From the NCBI GenBank assembly GCA_964366535.1, contig CAYIUC010000002.1:10773-72220 (forward strand): DNA of 61,448 bases, given 5' to 3'. Below are positions 55 through 58,727 of this stretch, piece by piece. The position numbers and the translations under genes were made by a program. Each line of letters opens with the position of its first letter. The stretch's first letter is position 1. Below the pieces are notes generated by a model. The model did no database searches, had not been told where the DNA came from, and saw only the letters and a list, made by a program, of their open reading frames with translations. The DNA is from an uncultured Candidatus Saccharibacteria bacterium. Its GTDB lineage: Bacteria > Patescibacteriota > Minisyncoccia > Phycocordibacterales > UBA10002.

Positions 55-648
55 ATGACATACCGAAAACGAAACAAAAAAGAGCACAGCAGGCCGAAAC
101 ATCGTGTGGGCCCCGTTCAACGAAAAATCTTACTGCTCCTTCTTGGCGGTCTTGCACTAGGATGTTCGGGCTCACCGAGCACCTCTTGGAAGATAATACG
201 AGCGATGCATAAAGAATGGAGAGACGTCAACAAACAAAACGCGGAGCGCGCGATTGCAGTTCTCTATAAAACAAAGCTAATAGAAGCGCGTAAAGATGAG
301 GGTGGAACGGTTACAATGGTTTTGAGCGATAACGGTAAAAAACGCGCGCTCACCTACAACCTCGGGACTATGCAGATTAAAAAGCCAGAAACATGGGACG
401 GGAATTGGCGTGTTGTACTGTTTGATATACCAGAAGAAAAACGCGGAGCGCGCGATTCCTTGCGTACGCGCCTTTTGAATCTCGGATTCTTTGAACTCCA
501 ACGCTCGGTACTGGTGCACCCTTATGAATGTCGTGATGAAATTGAATTCTTGATAGAAATGGGAGATATCCGCCCGTATGTCCGTTATATGCGCGCGCAC
601 CACATAGACAACGAACCGCATCTAAAAAGATTTTTCCGTATTGCCTGA
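55..648 (+). CDS. PaaX-like / Cas2-fold domain protein (putative DNA-binding regulator)
   Basis: 197-aa ORF. The segment WDGNWRVVLFDIPEEKRGARDSLRTRLLNLGFFELQRSVLVHPY resembles the PaaX C-terminal/Cas2-like family. Bracketed by the 36-bp palindromes. Confidence 0.55.
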   Translation: MTYRKRNKKEHSRPKHRVGPVQRKILLLLLGGLALGCSGSPSTSWKIIRAMHKEWRDVNKQNAERAIAVLYKTKLIEARKDEGGTVTMVLSDNGKKRALTYNLGTMQIKKPETWDGNWRVVLFDIPEEKRGARDSLRTRLLNLGFFELQRSVLVHPYECRDEIEFLIEMGDIRPYVRYMRAHHIDNEPHLKRFFRIA

Positions 649-668
649 CACTATTTTATCTACCCTAG

Positions 669-704
669 CTTATGATTAAGATACGATCGTATGTTAATCA
701 TAAG
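669..704. repeat. 36-bp AT-rich palindrome, copy 2 (best copy, one mismatched pair)
   Basis: cttatgattaagatacgatcgtatgttaatcataag read directly. Lies in the convergent spacer between the PaaX-like gene and ligA. Confidence 0.85.
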
Positions 705-761
705 TACAGAAAACTGATTTGGAATGTAGTACATATATGAAGTGAAGAAGCGGCTCAGGAT

Positions 762-3303
<2,542 letters not shown>

Positions 3304-3336: not shown

Positions 3337-3888
3337 TCACCAGTCATATATATATTCTCGCACGGTTACCGTACGCAAAGGCAGGTCGCCAGTTTTCCAA
3401 AGCACCTTCACTTCTACCTTCGCCTCATCATCAGAAGTACGGTCGCCATTTGGTATCGTATCAATACGCACTTCACGTACGAATTTAGTATCTTCCCAAT
3501 CGTTTGCGTTCTGCGGTTTATATCCATACTTGCCAGTCTCCGTCTGAAATGCGAGCGGCTCGCAAAAACTCCCGTATAGCGGACCTTCGCGGCGGCTACA
3601 CTGCGACACTGCATCGTCTCGGTCTTCTATTGTATTTATTTGACAGAGTTGCTCTAAACAATCTCCCGAAAGCCCGAACAACCAGTTGCTCCTGCGTCGC
3701 AGTTCGTTGCCGTCTCGCCTCATTCGTATATATTCAATCGCTTCTTCTGCTAGGAAACTCGCGGTAACCTGGTCGCGCGCGTACACCGCAGAGCGGATGC
3801 TCCTTTGCGCAAGCGTGAGAGGCCCCACGATCGCGCTTACCAAAATAACTACTGCAACCAGCGTTTCAATTAGAGAAAATCCGCGCAT
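3337..3888 (-). CDS. type IV minor pilin (PilV/GspI-like), prepilin N-terminal methylation domain
   Basis: Starts MRGFSLIETLVAVVILVSAIV, the G|FSLIE class III signal. Confidence 0.7.
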   Translation of the reverse strand: MRGFSLIETLVAVVILVSAIVGPLTLAQRSIRSAVYARDQVTASFLAEEAIEYIRMRRDGNELRRRSNWLFGLSGDCLEQLCQINTIEDRDDAVSQCSRREGPLYGSFCEPLAFQTETGKYGYKPQNANDWEDTKFVREVRIDTIPNGDRTSDDEAKVEVKVLWKTGDLPLRTVTVREYIYDW

Positions 3889-8129: not shown

Positions 8130-8135
8130 ATAAGT

Positions 8136-8163
8136 AAACGGCTAAATGCGTGTTTAGCCGTTT
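8136..8163. terminator. hairpin AAACGGCTAAA-tgcgtg-TTTAGCCGTTT directly after the pilT stop; repeated at 33469-33496
   Basis: 11-bp stem flanked by A-run/T-run, so possibly bidirectional. A second, about 90% identical copy lies in the decayed DUF559 unit. Confidence 0.5.
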
Positions 8164-8164
8164 T

Positions 8165-9232
8165 TTACAAAAGCCGCTCAAGTACGGCGGGATTTAATGA
8201 GTACGAAAATGCGGTCTCGGGAGCAATCTCGCCGCGGCGGACTAGCTCTGCAAGCGAGCGGTCCATATCTATCATCCCCTGCTCCGCGCCAGTTTGAATA
8301 ACTGTCTGGATTTCATGCGTGCGCTTCTCGCGAATAAGGTTCGCGACAGCCGCATTGGAAATAAGGAGCTCGTACGCCGGTACGCGCCCGCCCGCTACGC
8401 GCGGCACTAGCCGTTGCGAGAATATGCCCGTGAGCGACCCCGCAAGCTGCATGCGAATCTGCTCCTGCTGGCCCGACGGAAATACATCCACGATGCGCTC
8501 AATCGTCTGCGCGGCGTTGTTGGTATGTAGAGTAGAAAAGATGAGGTGCCCCGTCTCGGCGGCGGTCACTGCGGCGGAGATGGTGTCTATGTCGCGCATC
8601 TCGCCAATGAGTGCTACATCAATATCTTGACGGAATAGCGAGGTAAGTGCGGTACGGAAGTCCTTTGTATCAAGCCGCACCTCTCGCTGATCTATGATCG
8701 ACTTTTTCGGCTCGTACACATACTCAATCGGGTCTTCAATCGTCATAATGTGCTCCGCGCGCGTTCCGTTTACCATATCTATGAGCGAAGCAAGAGTGGT
8801 GGACTTGCCGCTTCCAATCGGACCAACGACTAAGAAAAATCCTTGTTGGCGCTTGGTGAAGCTCTCCAAAATCGGCGGCAAATGTAGTTCCTCTAGCGTC
8901 TGGATCTTTCGAGGAATTAGCCGGAGCGCAAACGCTATACCGCCCTGCTGGAAGTAGCCGTTTACGCGAAAGCGCGCTTTGTCGGCATAGCCCCAGGACA
9001 CATCTACCTCCTTGTCCGCAAAAAACCGCGCTAATTCTTCTTTGTCCAAAAGTGCGTGTGCAAATCCTTCGGCATCGGTGTGAGATATTTTCGGCTGTTT
9101 TTCTAGAGGAAACAGCGCGCCGTTCACGCGGATTGTAGGCGGCTTCCCTTCCGAAAGGTGTAAGTCGGACGCGCCCTCCTTCAGCACATACTCCGCAAGC
9201 CCCTCTAGTTCTTTTGTGTAGTCGGATGACAT
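8165..9232 (-). CDS. pilT: twitching-motility ATPase PilT
   Basis: Walker A GPIGSGKST plus Asp/His boxes. Start taken at MSSDYTKELEG to avoid overlap with the upstream gene (ORF track extends to 9283). Confidence 0.9.
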   Translation of the reverse strand: MSSDYTKELEGLAEYVLKEGASDLHLSEGKPPTIRVNGALFPLEKQPKISHTDAEGFAHALLDKEELARFFADKEVDVSWGYADKARFRVNGYFQQGGIAFALRLIPRKIQTLEELHLPPILESFTKRQQGFFLVVGPIGSGKSTTLASLIDMVNGTRAEHIMTIEDPIEYVYEPKKSIIDQREVRLDTKDFRTALTSLFRQDIDVALIGEMRDIDTISAAVTAAETGHLIFSTLHTNNAAQTIERIVDVFPSGQQEQIRMQLAGSLTGIFSQRLVPRVAGGRVPAYELLISNAAVANLIREKRTHEIQTVIQTGAEQGMIDMDRSLAELVRRGEIAPETAFSYSLNPAVLERLL

Positions 9233-11940: not shown

Positions 11941-12006
11941 ATTGAAGTTAAGTATAGTATACACCAACGACAAAAGTTCATGTGCGGTTATGCACAAGGT
12001 GAAAAG

Positions 12007-12072
12007 ACACCCCCTCTTCCCTCGTCCGCATTAGGCGGACTCGGGCTTTCTCCCCCTTAGGATAAGGGCGAG
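12007..12072 (+). repeat. double-hairpin repeat arm (forward orientation)
   Basis: acaccccctcttccctcGTCCGCattaGGCGGACtcgggctttctCCCCCTTAggaTAAGGGcgag. Confidence 0.75.
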
Positions 12073-12101
12073 AATAAGAAAGAGAAGTACAATACAAAGA
12101 T

Positions 12102-12458
12102 ATGCAGGTGCATAACAAACAAGAACTATACACGCGTAGAAAAAAGCTTCGTACGGGCGCAACGCTACAAGAAGCAAAACTGTGGGAACGCTTACGAAGA
12201 AAACAGTTGGGCTACAGATTCCGCAGGCAACATAGTGTCGGGTGGTACATTCTTGATTTTTATTGTCCAGAAAAGAAACTTGTCGTGGAGATTGACGGGG
12301 CGCCACACAAAGCAAGCAAGGAGTATGACGCGGTGCGCACGAACTACCTAAACCTACGCGGTATTCAGATACTGCGATTTTGGGATGATGAAGTGAGTAA
12401 CCATATTGAAAAAGTGGTATCAAAAATTAAAAATACTTTATGTCTTACCTGCCCTTAA
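12102..12458 (+). CDS. DUF559 (Vsr-like endonuclease fold) domain protein
   Basis: 118 aa. LRTGATLQEAKLWERLRRKQLGYRFRRQHSVGWYILDFYCPEKKLVVEIDGAPH...ILRFWDDEV. The stop codon lies inside the right arm. Confidence 0.85.
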   Translation: MQVHNKQELYTRRKKLRTGATLQEAKLWERLRRKQLGYRFRRQHSVGWYILDFYCPEKKLVVEIDGAPHKASKEYDAVRTNYLNLRGIQILRFWDDEVSNHIEKVVSKIKNTLCLTCP

Positions 12459-12500
12459 CCTAAGGGGAGGTGTCCGCCTGAGGCGGACGGAGGGGTGGTT
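12447..12500 (-). repeat. double-hairpin repeat arm (reverse orientation)
   Basis: acctgCCCTTAacctAAGGGgaggtGTCCGCCtgaGGCGGACggaggggtggtt. Confidence 0.75.
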
Positions 12501-12528
12501 TTATTTTTAGTGCGAGAAGGAAAATCTT

Positions 12529-21062: not shown

Positions 21063-21401
21063 ATGACTTCCCTCTTTCTGCGCATAGCGCTCGCGTTTTC
21101 CTTCCTCTACCCCGCGTACGGATTTTGGAAAAGCCCCGACGATTGGGTCGGCTACCTACCGCCATTTCTAAAAAGCGCAGGCATTCCAGAAGCGACGCTA
21201 CTTACATTGCTCGCCGTTTTCCACATCGCGCTCGCGCTCTGGCTCCTCTCCGGCTGGCGTATATTTCTACCATCGCTTGTAGCCGCGTTCTTCCTTGCCG
21301 GTGTCGTATTCTTCAACTGGAATCAAATAGACATCCTCTTCCGCGACCTCTCCCTCGCGCTCGCTGCGCTCGCGCTAGCGTTTGCGTCTCTAGATTCATA
21401 A
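21063..21401 (+). CDS. small polytopic membrane protein (DoxX-like?)
   Basis: About 112 aa with 3-4 hydrophobic helices. Family assignment is weak. ATG start chosen inside the track ORF that begins at a TTG at 21045. Confidence 0.35.
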   Translation: MTSLFLRIALAFSFLYPAYGFWKSPDDWVGYLPPFLKSAGIPEATLLTLLAVFHIALALWLLSGWRIFLPSLVAAFFLAGVVFFNWNQIDILFRDLSLALAALALAFASLDS

Positions 21402-21419
21402 CGAATTTGATGCGCGCTA

Positions 21420-28552: not shown

Positions 28553-28660
28553 GCGGGCAGTATAGCGCAAAAAATATATGGAACCAAATGCTTGACAAAT
28601 TATTCATTTAGAATGTAAAAACAAGAGCGGGGGGTAGGGTTTAGCGCATACATCCGAACT

Positions 28661-28716
28661 GACCCCTCTGCCTCGCTTACGCTTCGGCATCTCCCCTCTC
28701 AAAGAGGGGCGAAGGG
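28661..28716 (+). repeat. double-hairpin repeat arm (forward)
   Basis: gacccctctgcctcGCttacGCttcggcatCTCCCCTCTcaaAGAGGGGcGAaggg. Confidence 0.7.
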
Positions 28717-29067
28717 AACTTGCCTCTGCAAAGTTTGCATTATAACTGCAAGTACTTCTTCTAAATGCTTTTCGATTTCGTTGTCCCAGAATCTAAGAAC
28801 CGTTACGCCGCGTTCGCCCAAATAATCCGTTCGCACCTTATCATATTCTCTCTGCCGAGAATGATGCGAACCGTCAATTTCTATGGCGAGTTTCTTCGCA
28901 AAACAATAAAAATCTACAATGTACCAACCAATACTTTCTTGTCGACGAAATTTGAACCCAAGTTGATTTTTCCGTAGTCGCGCCCACAGTTTTATTTCTT
29001 GTGGCGTTGCGTCTTTCCGCAATTGTTGCCGACGCGCCTTCAACTCTTTTTTGTTATGCGTCGGCAT
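28699..29067 (-). CDS. DUF559 (Vsr-like endonuclease fold) domain protein, paralog 2
   Basis: MPTHNKKELKARRQQLRKDATPQEIKLWARLRKNQLGFKFRRQESIGWYIVDFYC...IEIDGSHH...VLRFWDNEI. About 58% identical to copy 1 by hand count. The track ORF extends into the arm (29169). Confidence 0.85.
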   Translation of the reverse strand: MPTHNKKELKARRQQLRKDATPQEIKLWARLRKNQLGFKFRRQESIGWYIVDFYCFAKKLAIEIDGSHHSRQREYDKVRTDYLGERGVTVLRFWDNEIEKHLEEVLAVIMQTLQRQVPFAPL

Positions 29068-29087
29068 AGTATCTATTGTACCTCTTC

Positions 29088-29148
29088 CTCCTCTCCCCCT
29101 TTTTGAAAGGGGGAGTACCCGAGCGAAAGCGAGGGGGTAGGGGTTAGC
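29088..29148 (-). repeat. double-hairpin repeat arm (reverse)
   Basis: ctcctCTCCCCCTTTttgAAAGGGGGAGtacCCGAGCGaaaGCGAGGGggtaggggttagc. Confidence 0.75.
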
Positions 29149-29187
29149 ATACCTACCAAGCACTTCCACTTGATGGGGAGAGGAATT

Positions 29188-32762: not shown

Positions 32763-32948
32763 TTACCAAGAGGACTTGCGCACGCCCGGGATAAGCCCGT
32801 CGTTTGCAAGCTCGCGGAAGCAAATGCGGCATACGCCGAAATCGCGCATATAGGCGCGCTTCCTGCCGCACCGGAAGCACCGCAACACAGTGCGGGTAGA
32901 AAACTTTGGCGTCTTTAACGCGCGCGCTATTACCGATGTCTTCGCCAT
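32763..32948 (-). CDS. rpsZ: 30S ribosomal protein S14, zinc-binding type Z
   Basis: 61 aa with [21 protein letters not shown] (CxxC...CxxC). Confidence 0.95.
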
Positions 32949-33091
32949 AATAAAACTAGACGCCCAAAAGAGCGTCCATCTACCCTATCAAACCCCGCCC
33001 ATTTTGTCCATACCGATGAACCACCAACCCCTATCTGTTCTTGAGGCATTCTTCCAAGTATCTGCTATAGCAAGTAGTTGGGAGAATGTAA

Positions 33092-33157
33092 GACACCCCT
33101 CCCGCTTCGCCCCGCCAACCGGCGGGGCTTGTCCCTCCCCTTATGTTAAGGGCAGGG
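33092..33157 (+). repeat. double-hairpin repeat arm (forward)
   Basis: gacacccctcccgcttcGCCCCGCCaaccGGCGGGGCttgtCCCTCCCCTTatgttAAGGGcAGGG. Confidence 0.75.
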
Positions 33158-33159
33158 AA

Positions 33160-33465
33160 AAGAAAAAAGCGCACTCACAGAGTGCGCTCCGATAAGATGA
33201 TAGAGTGGTAATCTTTCGCGTCACCTACACCGTTTTTAGGGGTTTATGAGGTCGATTACACCCACCGATGGCAGTCGAGTCTACTGATTGGCCGCCGTCG
33301 ACATTGCCATTTGATCACATCTATTCTAGGGATTTTGATTGCTTATAAGATTTCTACAATCATTACCCCACGCTCTATTGACAGCATAGCAAACCATGTC
33401 CTAAAAGTCAAGCGTTGGTGCAACTTCATTTTGTTGATTGTCAGAAAACCCTTGTTTTGCAACAT
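33160..33465 (-). pseudogene. decayed DUF559 gene
   Basis: Minus-strand frame reads MLQNKGFLTINKMKLHQRLTFRTWFAMLSIERGVMIVEIL-stop, then AIKIPRIDV. Compare intact IKLW..QLGFKFRRQESIGWYIVDFYC and AKKLAIEIDG. DNA shares tctacaat..tacc with copy 2. Confidence 0.5.
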
Positions 33466-33506
33466 ATTAAACGGCTAAACGCGCGTTTAGCCGTTTTTGA
33501 TTACCG

Positions 33507-33580
33507 CCTGCCCTTTTCCAAAGGGGAGGTGGCGAGCCCCGCCACGCCGTAGGCGGGGCGGGGCGAGACGGAGGGGTTGT
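33507..33580 (-). repeat. double-hairpin repeat arm (reverse)
   Basis: cctgCCCTTttccAAAGGGgaggtggcgaGCCCCGCCacgccgtaGGCGGGGCggggcgagacggaggggttgtt. Confidence 0.75.
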
Positions 33581-33592
33581 TCCCGACTTGTA

Positions 33593-33661
33593 CTAACCCC
33601 CTCCCCCTCGTCCCGCTTACAGCGGGACTCGGGTACTCCCCCTTTCAAAAAGGGGGAGAGG
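33593..33661 (+). repeat. solo double-hairpin repeat (forward), back-to-back with the arm at 33507-33580
   Basis: ctaaccccctccccctcGTCCCGCttacaGCGGGACtcgggtaCTCCCCCTTTcaaaAAGGGGGAGagg. Closest to the arm at 29088-29148. Confidence 0.7.
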
Positions 33662-33671
33662 AAAAGTGTTT

Positions 33672-37738: not shown

Positions 37739-37782
37739 ATCCAAAGTATACCCGCGAATGTGATAGCATACAAAACACACAC

Positions 37783-37850
37783 AACCACCCCTCCGTCTCG
37801 CCCCGCCAATCGGCGGGGCTCGCCACCTCCCCTTAGGTAAAGGGCAGGGT
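37783..37850 (+). repeat. solo double-hairpin repeat (forward)
   Basis: aaccacccctccgtctcGCCCCGCCaatcGGCGGGGCtcgccaCCTCCCCTTaggtaAAGGGcAGGgtg. No inverted partner within 1 kb. Confidence 0.75.
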
Positions 37851-37934
37851 GAAAAATCTCTTATGTAAAAATAGATTCCGACCGTAATCTATTTCTACAT
37901 GGACATATTCGTGCGAATAAAAAGAAAAGAAAAA

Positions 37935-40793: not shown

Positions 40794-40805
40794 CCGCCTT
40801 CCCGA

Positions 40806-40841
40806 CTTATGTTTAAGCTACGATCGTATCTTAATAATAAA
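40806..40841. repeat. 36-bp AT-rich palindrome, copy 3 (more diverged)
   Basis: cttatgtttaagctacgatcgtatcttaataataaa, in the convergent spacer between recG and the RelE-like toxin. Confidence 0.75.
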
Positions 40842-40846
40842 TCCGG

Positions 40847-47915: not shown

Positions 47916-50031
47916 CTTGCTCGTACATAAGTGTATACGCGTCTGCGCGAGAAAATAAACCGCGAGGTTCTACAAATACATAGTCGGCGATTGGTATAAC
48001 TTCTCCTGCACGAATCCGCATAGCATACTCACTAACGCGAAGAGTTAACTCTTCTTCAGGAATTATAGGTGGGGGCATTTTTGAAAAGAAACCATCGAAT
48101 GTGCGCGGGCGGTAAAACTCTTTAAATAGGTACAACGCATCGCGAGACACCCACACACGAAATTCGTCTTCAGATAAACCCCAAAGCGCCCCAAATGCAT
48201 ATGCGAGTTCCCATAGTTCTTCTTGAGATGCGAGCGTACTGAACCCATCCGTAACAAATGAACGATTCTCGGTAAACAATCTAAGCGCATAGTTGGTATG
48301 CGCCCGTTCGCTCGCCACCATTGACCCTGATGGCGTATGTTCGTTGAGCCACTGGTACGCATTTGCTTCGGGTATCGGTATGCCCCGTGTATGCGCTTCG
48401 TCACGGCTTAATCTGTACTGCCCGTAAAATGCGTGGGCGAAAAACAAAACAAGAAATGCGACGGCGTATATGCGAACCGTCCTTGCGGAAACACGCGACG
48501 CAAGATATCGCTTCCACAACCATACAACTACAACTCCGAATGCCAACATCACTGGCAAAAATGTCTCGCGATACCAATGGTCGGGCTGTGGCGAAAAGCC
48601 GAGTACTAATTGCACATTAACGACAACAAAATAAGCTGCGAGAAGAGAGATTAAAAACACCGCGGCAGATGAAAGGTGCTTTCTGGAAGCGTAGATAAGC
48701 GCGCCTATCCATACGAGATGCCGCGCGTATGTCTTCCACACCGACCCGAAGCGGAAATGCCGCCCGATTTCTACGCCCGCAATTCGAAACATAAGGTCTT
48801 CGTAGTGCGGCAAGCGGCGAAGCGCCGCAAAGTTGAACCAATACGGAATTGAGATAATGCCGCCAATACCAAAGATGCCCGCGCCTGACTTTACGGCGCG
48901 CCAATTGCGACGAAAAACAAACCATAAAATAGCGAGGACTAATGCAACCGTGAGATATGCCCAATCATAAAGATAAGTATAAAAGAGGATCCCAAAAAAT
49001 ACACCGCCGAAAACCACATCTCTCCTGACACCTGTGCGTAGAGCACGGAATATGAAAAGAAGCGCAATCGTATAAAAAATAAAGGTTATTTTCGGATATT
49101 CAAAACTTGAAAAATAAAGCAATGCGTTTTGCGGAAGAATAGAAACAGAAGGAGAAAGGAGCGCCGCAAGCGGCGATACCATAAAAACAGAAGCGAGCAG
49201 AAGCGCCGGCTTTGCGCGCCGAAATACCTCGCGCAAAAGCGCATACACCGCAAGGAAAATAAGCGGCGGGATTAAGAAATCGGAGACGATATAAGCGCGC
49301 TCCATGCTCAAAAGCGCCTTGCCAAGACCGCCCATAATCAAAGGATTCAATACCGGCAAGAGAGACGGCAACTCTAATTCGCCGCGCGCGAAGAAGGCAT
49401 TCGCGCGCGGCCCGTAGTAGCCGCCGGCGTCTGGATCGGACGCATAGGTAACCGGCGTGTATACTAACCCACCCGGCATAAAACTAGGCATAAGTAAGTG
49501 GTGTATGCCGTATAGCAGAGAAACGGCTAGCGCTACAACGAGCACGGCACGGTGAGATACGAAAAATGAACGCATGAGTACTGCCCAATGCGCAAGCGGC
49601 GATCGCGGATGGAAAATAACGAAGCGATATACGAAGAAGCTACCTACCGCGATCGTCGCGGCGGCAATGATCTGCGCGAAGAAGTACCAAAGCCCCGCCC
49701 ATTCCACGAGCGCGTACATAAAAGCGGCGTTGATTCCGATATTGGTGATTTGTAGTCCTAAATAAAAAGCGCTTTGTGTAGCAACGGCTTTTCCAGACGC
49801 GCTGCGATCTCCAAAGGTATAAAACTTCTGGAGTACAAAACTCACGACCACAGCCACGCAAAACGCCGCAGTGGCGGACACAAGATAGTGCCACCCGACA
49901 TACTCTGTCAGCGCAAACAGAATGCCAAGGTCAATGGCGGTAGAGGTACCGCCAGCAATAAGGTAACGGATGCCTATTGGAAGCCCGAATAAGAAATTGC
50001 GCATGCGAAGCATTATAACAGAGTGCGCCAT
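47887..50031 (-). CDS. GtrA-like domain fused to a large polytopic membrane domain (possible GT-C-type transferase)
   Basis: N-terminal about 140 aa reads IRYLIAGGTSTAIDLGILFAL...VVSFVLQKFYTF...FFVYRFVIF (GtrA family). More than 12 further TM segments and a soluble C-terminus follow. Confidence 0.55.
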   Translation of the reverse strand: MAHSVIMLRMRNFLFGLPIGIRYLIAGGTSTAIDLGILFALTEYVGWHYLVSATAAFCVAVVVSFVLQKFYTFGDRSASGKAVATQSAFYLGLQITNIGINAAFMYALVEWAGLWYFFAQIIAAATIAVGSFFVYRFVIFHPRSPLAHWAVLMRSFFVSHRAVLVVALAVSLLYGIHHLLMPSFMPGGLVYTPVTYASDPDAGGYYGPRANAFFARGELELPSLLPVLNPLIMGGLGKALLSMERAYIVSDFLIPPLIFLAVYALLREVFRRAKPALLLASVFMVSPLAALLSPSVSILPQNALLYFSSFEYPKITFIFYTIALLFIFRALRTGVRRDVVFGGVFFGILFYTYLYDWAYLTVALVLAILWFVFRRNWRAVKSGAGIFGIGGIISIPYWFNFAALRRLPHYEDLMFRIAGVEIGRHFRFGSVWKTYARHLVWIGALIYASRKHLSSAAVFLISLLAAYFVVVNVQLVLGFSPQPDHWYRETFLPVMLAFGVVVVWLWKRYLASRVSARTVRIYAVAFLVLFFAHAFYGQYRLSRDEAHTRGIPIPEANAYQWLNEHTPSGSMVASERAHTNYALRLFTENRSFVTDGFSTLASQEELWELAYAFGALWGLSEDEFRVWVSRDALYLFKEFYRPRTFDGFFSKMPPPIIPEEELTLRVSEYAMRIRAGEVIPIADYVFVEPRGLFSRADAYTLMYEQDGFRIYEKP

Positions 50032-51056
50032 TCCGCCGCCTGTTTCTGTATATGCGCTTGCGGCGATGGCAGCGCAAAGAAACTTGCGCGCGCCGCTTCT
50101 CCTAGCCGCACTCTTAACGGCTCATCAACAATGAACCGTTCCATTGCTGCAGCGAGCTCGCCTTCGCCGCCAATGGGAATCACGATTCCATTTTCTCCGT
50201 TTTGTATAAACTCTCCCGCACAGCCCACATCGGTCATTATAATCGGCAGTCCATATGCAGCCGCCTCCACAACCGCAACCCCCCACCCTTCGCTGTCGGA
50301 GGTGAGAAGAAACGCATCGGCCTCTTCGTAGAACAGCGCCAAATCTTTCTGCTGCCCCTCAAACACCACCCTATTCTCTGATTTTAAACTTTTGACCTGC
50401 GACTTTAGCCACCATTCCAGTATTCCACTACCAACAATCCGCAATCTCGCTTGTGGAAATTCCCGCACAATACGCGCGAGCGCGCGAATTTGCATTGCGA
50501 TATTCTTAACAGGCACCAGCCGCCCAACCGTTAGAAAAGTAAATGCGTTCCCTTCTGCCTCTCCACCTTTTCTAAGGGGGAGTACCCCGAGCGGAGCGAG
50601 GGGGGTGGAGGTGGTTTGGGTATATACAGGCAGTACATACACTTTCTCAGCCGATGCACCAAAATCAACGGCTAACTGCATTAGCCGTTGGCTTACTACC
50701 CTCACCTTGTCTGCACGGCGCAATACAAAACCGGCAATCATCTTTCGTATGCAGTGCAACTTTTCAAACCCGTGCACCTGGACCTCCAATGACGCATGGA
50801 ATCTACGCGCGACGAGATACGCGAGGAGCGCAAGGTACGCCGTGTCTTGCACGGTTACAATATCAAACTTATCTTCTATAAACGCGCGTCGCGCGCTCTT
50901 CCACAAACGCAAGAACTGCGATTGTCTACTCCCCGCGCCATCAGGTACAAATACGACAATCTCCACTGCCTCCTTCCGAAGCGCCGCGAGCCGCTCTGCG
51001 GCGAGCGTCCCCTCGCGCAGTATTTCCCCGTCCAAACTAAACATGCATATTCTCAT
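50013..51056 (-). CDS. GT4-family glycosyltransferase carrying an in-frame copy of the double-hairpin repeat
   Basis: FLTVGRLVPVKN...LTSDSEGWGVAVVEAAAYGLPII. The linker TTSTPLAPLGVLPLRKGGEAEG is encoded by the repeat at 50558-50616. Confidence 0.8.
   Translation of the reverse strand: MRICMFSLDGEILREGTLAAERLAALRKEAVEIVVFVPDGAGSRQSQFLRLWKSARRAFIEDKFDIVTVQDTAYLALLAYLVARRFHASLEVQVHGFEKLHCIRKMIAGFVLRRADKVRVVSQRLMQLAVDFGASAEKVYVLPVYTQTTSTPLAPLGVLPLRKGGEAEGNAFTFLTVGRLVPVKNIAMQIRALARIVREFPQARLRIVGSGILEWWLKSQVKSLKSENRVVFEGQQKDLALFYEEADAFLLTSDSEGWGVAVVEAAAYGLPIIMTDVGCAGEFIQNGENGIVIPIGGEGELAAAMERFIVDEPLRVRLGEAARASFFALPSPQAHIQKQAAEWRTLL
50558..50616 (-). repeat. double-hairpin repeat copy (reverse orientation) inside a CDS
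   Basis: gcctCTCCaCCTTTtctAAGGgGGAGtacCCCGAGCGgaGCGAGGGGggtggaggtgg, compared with 29088-29148. Confidence 0.7.
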
Positions 51057-51133: not shown

Positions 51134-51541
51134 TTACAGCATCTTCACCTCAATATGCACCCCCGATGGAAGCGATAGATTTGTAAGCGCCTCTATTAGC
51201 TTCGCAGATGGGTTTACTATATCCACAAGCCGTTTATGCGCGCGCATTTCAAACTGCTCGCGCGCGTTTTTGTGCACGAACGCAGAACGGTTCACCGTAT
51301 ATTTTCTAATTTCAGTTGGGAGAGGCACTGGACCCTGCACCTCGGCATCAAAGCGCGCCGCCGCTTCCATAATCTGCCGCACAGATGCATCCAGTATTTT
51401 GTGTTCGTACGCGCGCACGCGGATGCGCAGTTTCGGCGCTTCTGCTTTTTTGGCGGCGGCGCGCCTCACCGGCGCTTTCTTCGCCGCAGTAGCTTTCTTC
51501 TTCACTGTTGTTTTCTTTTCGGTCGGCATTTGGTTAGGCAA
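51134..51541 (-). CDS. rpsJ: 30S ribosomal protein S10 with Lys/Ala-rich N-terminal extension
   Basis: [24 protein letters not shown]...[39 protein letters not shown], preceded by about 35 K/A-rich residues. Confidence 0.9.
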
Positions 51542-58436: not shown

Positions 58437-58580
58437 ACCGCCCGCTTATTACGCAAAGGTAATGCCTATAGTATACATTGGCGCTGTGGAAAAGGCGTGG
58501 ACGGGGTGTGGATAAGGTTTCGCTCGGAAGTTACCTCTGCCGAGACCGGAAGATTTTCCCAGCGAGAAAATCTTCCTTAT

Positions 58581-58650
58581 CCGCTCGCCTCGCTCGCCCC
58601 TCGCTTTGCTCGGGGCACCTGCCCGCTCGGCTCCTCGCCGTCTCGGCATA
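58581..58650 (+). repeat. degenerate GC-rich tract related to the double-hairpin repeat
   Basis: CCCCTCGCTTTGCTCGGGGCAC resembles CCCCCTCGCTTTCGCTCGGGTAC, the reverse complement of 29115-29137. The rest is reiterated CTCGC/GCTCGG. Confidence 0.3.
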
Positions 58651-58680
58651 GGTACTTCCTCACTTTTGTTGTATTTTGCA

Positions 58681-58714
58681 AACAAAAACCCCACCGCTTT
58701 TCAGCGAATGGGGT
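58681..58714 (-). terminator. intrinsic terminator of the gene at 58728-59162
   Basis: Minus strand reads CCCCAttCGCtgaaaaGCGgTGGGGtttttgtt. Confidence 0.65.
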
Positions 58715-58727
58715 TGTGGGAGATCAG

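Follow-up and report, generated by a model that had tools for sequence, protein, structure and literature searches.

How does a short structured repeat come to lie in frame within the gene for an intact enzyme, and at what level, DNA, RNA or protein, is it kept there? The question is raised by a stretch of 61,448 nucleotides of contig CAYIUC010000002.1 (hereafter, the window) from an uncultured bacterium of the Patescibacteriota, in which the gene for a glycosyltransferase of family GT4 contains, between the two halves of the enzyme, a copy of a double-hairpin repeat. This copy in the inter-domain linker belongs to a family of short structured repeats that extends across the Parcubacteria, and it is kept constant as nucleic acid rather than as peptide. 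The explanation that we favor, and consider probable, is that of an old insertion into the linker that has been kept as a DNA hairpin of the repeat family.

A repeat copy in frame within the gene for a GT4 glycosyltransferase

Copies of the repeat were identified with a covariance model (R1) that was built from five in-gene copies of other genomes, with the window sequence excluded. The structured strand of the repeat, denoted F, is the template strand of the GT4 gene. The features of the locus are:

50013..51056, minus strand: gene for a GT4 (GT-B fold) glycosyltransferase, 347 aa, intact (Pfam, homologues, AlphaFold, Foldseek)
50544..50633, minus strand: inter-domain linker, residues 142-171, without predicted secondary structure (AlphaFold; predicted local distance difference test (pLDDT) score <50 at residues 155-160 and 163-168)
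50552..50618, plus strand (F strand, GT4 template strand): in-gene double-hairpin copy, coding for residues ~147-169 (R1 82.6 bits, E=5e-23)
50561..50582, plus strand: hairpin 1, CTCCACC-TTTTCTAA-GGGGGAG, a 7-bp stem with one A x G mismatch
50585..50603, plus strand: hairpin 2, CCCC-GA-GC-GGA-GC-GA-GGGG, with an outer 4-bp stem, a tandem G.A/A.G pair and an inner GC stem
50591-50597, plus strand: hairpin 2 core GCGGAGC, which fits the GCGNAGC DNA mini-hairpin motif
50604..50614, plus strand: conserved G-rich tail GGTGGAGGTGG (family consensus GGAGGGGTGG)

The open reading frame (ORF) of the gene is free of stop codons through the repeat. In the encoded protein, Pfam assigns residues 26-143 to Glyco_trans_4 and residues 166-324 to Glycos_transf_1 (E=8e-37). 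The 655 homologues found at E<=1e-10 are named as Parcubacteria or Taylorbacteria glycosyltransferases. All 56 invariant columns of a 30-sequence alignment are kept by the window protein, including E256/E264 in the E-x7-E region. The AlphaFold model (mean pLDDT 89.3, predicted template modelling score 0.82) shows the beta/alpha pattern in both halves, and its best Foldseek matches are the GT-B enzymes BshA and MshA (E about 1e-19). The two Rossmann-like domains, the C-terminal Glycos_transf_1 domain and the conserved E-x7-E place the protein within the GT4 family with the GT-B fold.

The repeat encodes TTSTPLAPLGVLPLRKGGEAEG, residues 148-169, which is followed by F172-TFLTVGRLVPVKN (motif FTFLTVGRLVPVKN). 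The sequence-only reading of this locus had placed the repeat in frame between the Rossmann halves of the enzyme, just before this motif, and this placement holds. That reading also proposed a structure prediction for the segment: residues ~150-170 are the sole poorly predicted stretch of the model (block mean pLDDT 50 and 48), lying between the strands at 139-141 and 172-177, and sequence matches to solved structures start at residue 174, directly after the repeat. The model thus supports a disordered loop (pLDDT ~50) between two confidently predicted halves. The in-gene copy is read as a Pro/Gly/Leu-rich loop, predicted to be disordered, in an enzyme that appears intact.

The repeat family

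The segment singled out in the sequence-only reading, located at 50558-50616, lies within a whole repeat copy of 67 nt. Its match to 29088-29148 had been called nearly base for base. The match is a real one between members of a family, with a local alignment score of 58 against 21-32 for shuffles (best score of each of 30 shuffled queries, each run against the whole window) and a median of 13 for window tiles, but with both copies on the plus strand only 43 of 50 columns are identical (~86%), with four gaps of 1-2 bases. An exact 30-mer from the in-gene segment occurs once in the window and 0 times in the shuffles.

About 10 related copies of the family are present in the window and all but the GT4 copy are intergenic. 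The between-gene copies occur on both strands (five plus, four minus). R1 matches the in-gene copy and the following eight intergenic copies (E=4e-14 to 0.03):

29084..29150, plus strand: copy lying upstream of a DUF559 gene, as one arm of its cassette, between secY and adk (53.4 bits, E=4e-14)
28655..28722, minus strand: weak copy, the other arm of this first DUF559 cassette (E=0.03)
12003..12081, minus strand: left arm of the second DUF559 cassette (E=2e-8)
12439..12502, plus strand: right arm of the second DUF559 cassette (E=8.5e-5)
33590..33667, minus strand: copy just downstream of rplE (L5) (E=4e-10; z=-4.0)
33498..33581, plus strand: copy of the CCCCGCC/GGCGGGG hairpin 2 subtype (R1 match at 33498-33562, E=0.005)
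33089..33165, minus strand: copy of the same subtype (E=0.013)
37781..37857, minus strand: copy of the same subtype (E=2e-5)

Because R1 was built without window sequence and matches both the in-gene copy and the intergenic arms, these are one family, and the membership of 50552-50618 in it is confirmed. The F-strand layout consists of a C/T-rich leader CTTCTnCCT, hairpin 1, a spacer of 2-4 bases, hairpin 2 and the tail, and the in-gene copy has leader, hairpin 1, hairpin 2 and G-rich tail in this order. Hairpin 1 of the family is CTCCCCC, a loop of 8-9 nt and GGGGGAG. Hairpin 2 is optional in the family and variable in length and sequence; in the copy at 33590-33667, for example, it is replaced by the longer stem GTCCCGC/GCGGGAC. 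Some copies have GTAG inside the tail (GGGGGTAGGGG at 29088 and in the orthologue copy L003), which is absent from the window GT4 copy. The two ends of the in-gene copy, CTTCT... and ...GGGGTGG, do not form an inverted repeat, and no target-site duplication or flanking direct repeat was found at the GT4 copy or at the intergenic copies compared. An Rfam scan of the window at gathering thresholds reported only tmRNA and two tRNAs.

Conservation as nucleic acid in orthologous genes

The same element is found at the same position and in the same frame and orientation in the GT4 orthologues of five other assemblies (R1 80-94 bits):

L001, protein P0002: 72% identity to the window protein
L003, protein P0004: 62% identity
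L166, protein P0005: 59% identity
L164, protein P0007: 56% identity
L165, protein P0018: 53% identity

Between the window and these five carriers, the element shows 79-95% nucleotide identity compared to 59-72% in the rest of the gene, and the third codon positions are 71-93% identical in the element compared to 38-54% elsewhere. Across all 15 carrier pairs, the corresponding ranges are 70-98% vs 57-76% and, for third positions, 71-100% vs 35-59%. In particular, the 17-codon core shared by the window and L001 is 96% identical (71% for the gene), with third positions at 88% vs 53%. The contrast persists at codons for the same amino acid, where third positions match in 11/12 cases in the element vs 93/202 in the rest of the gene for L003 (p=0.002) and in 9/9 vs 86/186 for L165 (p=0.001); in the latter comparison, the third positions of the element (86% identical) are better conserved than its amino acids (64%). 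The element is not a recombined patch because, in the alignment of the window with L001, the codons just outside it diverge ordinarily. An independent replicate is provided by a single-hairpin version, SQPPLYKGGEEGG, which is present in five other orthologues and in which third positions are 100% identical vs 44-54% in 9/10 pairs.

The pairing is conserved together with the sequence. When all family copies were aligned with MAFFT and folded with RNAalifold, only hairpin 1 was recovered, the length of hairpin 2 being variable, and the pairing analysis was therefore limited to the gap-free alignment of the six in-gene copies. Across these copies, hairpin 2 is 97% paired, and in three of its pairs both partners differ, in each case in L164 (CCCC/GGGG became CACC/GGTG, and GC/GC became AA/TT). 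Such values were obtained in only 3 of 500 column shuffles, and pairing falls from 86% to 47-62% when the partners are slid by 1-3 columns. Watson-Crick T-A and C-G pairs take the place of the tandem G.A pairs in L165, and the peptide encoded by hairpin 2, PLAPLG, becomes HLNSFG or PLATRE in L164 and L165 with the pairing kept. The stem of hairpin 1 is perfect in L001 and L003.

These observations bear on two suggestions of the sequence-only reading. The first was that the repeat had entered a tolerant linker and been exapted; the tolerant linker is borne out by the disordered loop and by the variable linkers of the orthologues, whereas exaptation for the protein is not, given that conservation is at the level of nucleotides and not of the peptide. 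The second was that the same peptide in orthologues lacking any repeat family would make the similarity to the arms coincidental. The peptide is indeed shared by orthologues, but because they carry the same DNA element, and the model derived from those copies finds the intergenic arms. Alleles free of the repeat did not turn up: the window protein has no companion in its 90% cluster, and the genome and metagenome matches are at <=61%.

The structured strand is the template strand

Several features of the element are specific to the F strand. All four wobble pairs are G.T on F and become A.C mismatches in the mRNA, and the tandem G.A pairs and purine loops are also on F. F folds better than its complement in 5/5 copies tested, with -11.4 vs -8.8 kcal/mol for the window copy (-32 vs -21.5 as RNA). 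The motif GCGNAGC/GCGNNAGC is described as a DNA mini-hairpin of unusual stability that contains a sheared G.A pair (PMC13037366). On F, the cores of hairpin 2 are GCGGAGC in the window and L001, GCGAAGC in L003, GCGTAGC in L165, GCGAAAGC at 29088 and GCGTAAGC at 28655-28722, and all five fit this motif, as a match of sequence motif only; the in-gene copies of L166 and L164 depart from it. No sigma-70-like promoter for an antisense RNA was found near the element.

The same bias is seen beyond this gene. Among the R1 matches in ~2 Mb of fetched loci, 27 of 51 are inside ORFs of at least 150 aa, and in these the F strand is the template strand in 20 cases, the sense strand in 2 and ambiguous in 5; six of the 20 template-strand matches represent one orthologous GT4 event, and some others may be mutually orthologous. 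The simplest explanation of the bias would be that mRNA does not tolerate the strand that folds strongly.

Repeats in the linker across Parcubacteria and in other proteins

The linker is the most variable part of the GT4 family, and its length and sequence differ widely among orthologues. In a survey set of ~125 distinct GT4 orthologues from ~2 Mb of Parcubacteria contigs, it contains tandem heptamers and a large number of unrelated hairpin repeats, all of which keep the reading frame. Tandem repeats were detected in 35/126 linkers compared to 4/360 control segments, and a folding energy over 60 nt of <=-25 kcal/mol in 12% of the linkers vs 2.7% of control blocks (8% vs 0% at <=-30 kcal/mol); a crude test for perfect stems of at least 7 bp gave no separation (15% of linkers, 12% of control segments). 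Many of the linker sequences match repeats elsewhere in the surveyed contigs.

In the window gene itself, a second in-frame hairpin from a different repeat family is present:

50666..50690, minus strand: CAACGGCTAA-TGCAG-TTAGCCGTTG, then ATTTTGG; encodes QRLMQLAVD, helix 123-131

The core of this hairpin is also that of two terminator-like hairpins between genes, at 8135-8165 and 33468-33498. At the same position, L001 (~3490-3520) has a copy that is identical to window 33468-33498 in 28/32 positions, L165 has a compensated version, CAACGATTA/TAATCGTTG, and other orthologues have three TTCAAGA heptamers (FKIQDSR). Hairpins of the double-hairpin family are also found in frame in other GT4 paralogues, in a type IV coupling protein, in a reverse transcriptase and in an LTD/PKD surface protein. 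A protein-database search with the repeat-encoded peptides (a 112-aa concatenate) gave no match, so that the spread of the family is judged on the ~2 Mb of loci.

Heptamers in the linkers of more distant orthologues (L026, L058, L033, L038, L053, L096, L128, L025, L073, L151 and others) include GTCAAAA, ACGCATA/ACGCACA, GGAACGT, GAATTAC and AGAATTA, and linker heptamers recur as longer arrays elsewhere in the same contigs, e.g., L035 6084-6141. Phase variation by such tracts was considered and there is no evidence of it: 147/147 genes with both domains were recovered in frame.

DUF559 cassettes flanked by family copies

The only gene that recurs next to the family copies encodes a DUF559 protein, and the window contains two:

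28699..29067, minus strand: DUF559 (PF04480) gene flanked by inverted family copies (Pfam E=1e-35)
12102..12458, plus strand: second DUF559 (PF04480) gene, 57% identical to the first (Pfam E about 1e-35)

Both genes are bracketed by inverted family copies (spans 28655-29150 and 12003-12502), and one of the cassettes is located between secY and adk. In an unrelated, distant contig (L134), two DUF559 genes are likewise bordered by family matches (148-500 and 2042-2490). This arrangement suggests either a small mobile cassette or the insertion of DUF559 genes into hairpin pairs. It is tempting to speculate that DUF559 nucleases recognize the family hairpins; such a link, if true, would give a first clue to what this very widespread but functionally uncharacterized domain does.

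Origin and maintenance of the in-gene copy

The probable course of events would be as follows. A single ancient insertion, in the ancestor of lineages whose GT4 proteins are now 53-72% identical, would have replaced nearly all of the native linker. The sequence-only reading proposed to look for an insertion of about 20 residues by alignment of orthologues. The linker of the window protein is indeed longer, with 24 residues compared to 13-16 in plain linkers (counted from YTQ to F-x-FLTVGRLV), but 22 of the 24 are derived from the repeat, and therefore the native linker was for the most part replaced rather than extended. After insertion, constraint may have acted on the F-strand DNA hairpin, single-stranded or as a cruciform, as part of the biology of the repeat family itself, perhaps through recognition by the machinery that spreads or maintains the family, possibly the DUF559 nucleases flanked by its copies. 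The linker would be a harmless parking place, with no constraint on the GT4 mRNA or the enzyme. We place the constraint, less firmly, on a DNA hairpin that would serve the repeat family because the G.T wobbles, the tandem G.A pairs and the GCGNAGC core are all on the template strand.

The principal alternative is that there has been no selection in place and that the identity of the copies stems from repeated precise insertion or gene conversion by master copies, that is, concerted evolution. We regard this main rival, with its unseen master copies, as improbable but as deserving serious attention. The family consensus itself is conserved across genomes, the in-gene copy of L003 is 90% identical over 50 nt to the window intergenic copy at 29089, and unrelated repeat families in the same linker of other clades imply that independent arrivals happen; the patchy distribution of carriers, discussed below, also fits. 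Conversely, the window copy resembles the in-gene copies of the orthologues (96% to L001, 82.6 bits) more than any of the nine others present in the window (at best 86%, 53.4 bits). The six in-gene copies also share three differences in length from the intergenic copies of the window (an 8-nt loop 1, a GNA triloop and a CCCC outer stem), which together with the shared boundaries, frame and orientation point to one origin. Finally, the variants of the element partly track the gene tree, with TTTTCTAA in the window, L001 and L164 and TTTTCCAA in L003 and L166.

Several points weigh against a single old insertion maintained as a DNA hairpin. The carriers are patchy on a neighbor-joining tree (which is without support values), with plain linkers in P0011, the sister of the window protein and P0002, and in P0022, the sister of P0005, so that a single origin requires several losses or replacements. 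All three compensatory pairs come from the single lineage of L164, the in-gene sample comprises six copies, and the strand argument is based on four wobble pairs. The window copy itself has a mismatch in hairpin 1 and a folding energy no better than that of shuffles (z=-0.9 as RNA, -1.05 as DNA). Moreover, the analysis covered 61 kb of the genome and, for the relatives, 2-12 kb of their contigs, and nearer master copies, able to drive gene conversion or re-insertion, may lie beyond.

An action of the hairpins on GT4 at the RNA level, as a translational pause, a processing site or an attenuator, seems quite unlikely. Such a role would agree with the enrichment of strong structure and repeats in the linker and with a terminator-like hairpin 50 nt upstream, on the sense strand; however, it is the antisense strand of the element that folds better, with the four wobble pairs turned into A.C in the mRNA, and many orthologues, close ones included, have plain linkers. 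Furthermore, no strand is consistently preferred in the linkers at large, the antisense strand being more stable in only 23 of 40 structured ones.

Even less probable is co-option of the peptide, with a GVLPL(R/G)KGGE loop useful to the enzyme, e.g., for contact with a membrane or a partner. This loop is well conserved among the window, L001 and L003, but third codon positions are conserved as well as the amino acids or better, the hairpin 2 residues change in L164 and L165 with pairing retained, the loop is predicted to be disordered and close orthologues lack it. That the gene is a fresh pseudogene still reading through, as the sequence-only reading had allowed, or that the match is due to chance low complexity, has a negligible probability: the G/C-rich composition of the segment alone speaks for it, and against it stand the same in-frame element in five other assemblies at 53-72% identity, the retained catalytic and invariant residues, the better preservation of first and second codon positions (71% identity for the whole gene vs 53% for third positions), an alignment score that shuffles never reach and the R1 E-value of 5e-23.

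The preferred reading, an old insertion kept as a DNA hairpin, can be extended. We tentatively entertain a bolder version, which on balance is doubtful: a functional, strand-specific DNA signal, in the form of a single-stranded or cruciform double hairpin with a mini-hairpin core, would have been kept by selection inside coding sequence over deep divergence, for use by the machinery of the repeat family, perhaps the DUF559 nucleases, making the stretch dual-coding. Parcubacteria would then place elements of this kind in tolerant protein loops as a matter of routine, and the structured strand would in every case be the template. If this is true, in-frame colonization by repeats would be a general route of linker and loop evolution in the proteins of Parcubacteria. 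The practical consequences are more immediate, given that repeat-derived peptides (…PLxKGG…, …LSLRG…, …RITNYEL…) will mislead homology searches, the delineation of domain boundaries and selection scans; conversely, the elements could serve as lineage markers.

Other repeats and genes in the neighborhood

A weak additional R1 match is located at 21343-21409 on the minus strand (15.2 bits, E=0.02), and the intergenic region 58437-58727 contains a hairpin 2-like unit, CCCCGAGCAAAGCGAGGGG (R1 E=0.04), within GC-rich CGAGC/GCTCG repeats. The gap between rplE (L5, 33672-34223) and rpsZ (S14, 32763-32948), which is very short in most bacteria, here extends over ~720 nt (32949-33671) and includes three family copies and the terminator-like hairpin at 33468-33498. 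In ~340 nt of this gap, no ORF, Rfam match or DUF559 similarity was found; the possibility that the 340 nt between arms at 33160-33500 represent a decayed DUF559 gene was rejected, with no tblastn similarity. Another palindromic repeat, ACTTATGATTAAGATACGATCGTA..., forms an inverted pair (3-45 and 663-705) around an ORF at 55-648, the product of which contains the PaaX central Cas2-like domain, and a third copy is present after recG (40801-40846). Ribosomal protein S10 (51134-51541, minus strand) has a Lys/Ala-rich N-terminal extension of ~35 residues, with the Pfam domain starting at residue 39.

In L001, a diversity-generating retroelement (177-3022), with a bAvd gene and a split reverse transcriptase, is located directly upstream of the GT4 gene. 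Its variable region/template repeat (VR/TR) pair of 129 nt (931-1059 and 1418-1546) is 90% identical, and the variable region is in the upstream gene for a 294-aa protein. A reverse transcriptase fragment also abuts the GT4 gene in L166 (3-383) and L167 (14-397). The GT4 linker as a variable region of the retroelement in L001 was considered and rejected: the VR/TR pair lies within that upstream gene and beside the accessory gene, and L001 has no second copy of the linker.

Comparison with known systems

The Candidate Phyla Radiation is characterized by tiny genomes that are usually regarded as streamlined. In-frame 'selfish DNA in genes', which is best documented in Rickettsia, now appears in this radiation; a limited full-text literature search found no description of in-frame repeat elements there. 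Three groups of bacterial repeats invite comparison.

Transposable elements of the miniature inverted-repeat type (MITEs), namely, ERIC/RU elements, BOX and cyanobacterial MITEs, are known to create in-frame fusions (PMC10969869, PMC2759123). Like the present family, they are small non-autonomous repeats that are occasionally read through within ORFs, but the unit described here has neither terminal inverted repeats nor a target-site duplication, being a pair of hairpins rather than a pair of transposase-binding ends.

The repetitive extragenic palindromic (REP) elements and bacterial interspersed mosaic elements (BIME) are proteobacterial and by definition extragenic, have a GTAG/CGTC tag and are associated with RAYT transposases (Di Nocera et al., 2013, PMC3733652). 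In that description, they resemble the present family in being short, G+C-rich, imperfect palindromes that are present in many copies, frequently arranged as inverted pairs, and that have mismatches specific to one strand; an action as DNA or RNA structures is ascribed to them (PMC3733652). In contrast to the extragenic REP/BIME of this account, the GT4 copy and 27 of the 51 model matches are inside ORFs; as far as the same account allows comparison, no consistent tag is visible here and the sole recurring neighbor is a DUF559 gene.

The closest known parallel, by analogy, appears to be the Rickettsia palindromic elements (RPEs). These elements, reported by Ogata et al. (2000) as summarized in a review (PMC10969869), insert in frame into many genes. 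The likeness extends to multiple palindromic copies that are found both between genes and in frame in unrelated intact genes, at sites compatible with the fold of the protein. By description, the present family is nevertheless set apart from RPEs by its host, Parcubacteria/Patescibacteria, which belong to another phylum (the bacterium of the window being Parcubacteria/Taylorbacteria-like), and by its unit of ~60-67 nt compared to ~100-150 bp; no relation in sequence to RPEs was apparent. It differs also in that the in-gene copy exceeds its gene in the conservation of synonymous sites, with compensatory changes, and in that the in-ORF copies are nearly all in one orientation; RPEs are described as deteriorating. 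Thus, an in-frame repeat has a precedent, whereas three features are, we believe, new: the long conservation at the nucleotide level with compensation, the biased orientation and the repeated occupation of a single linker.

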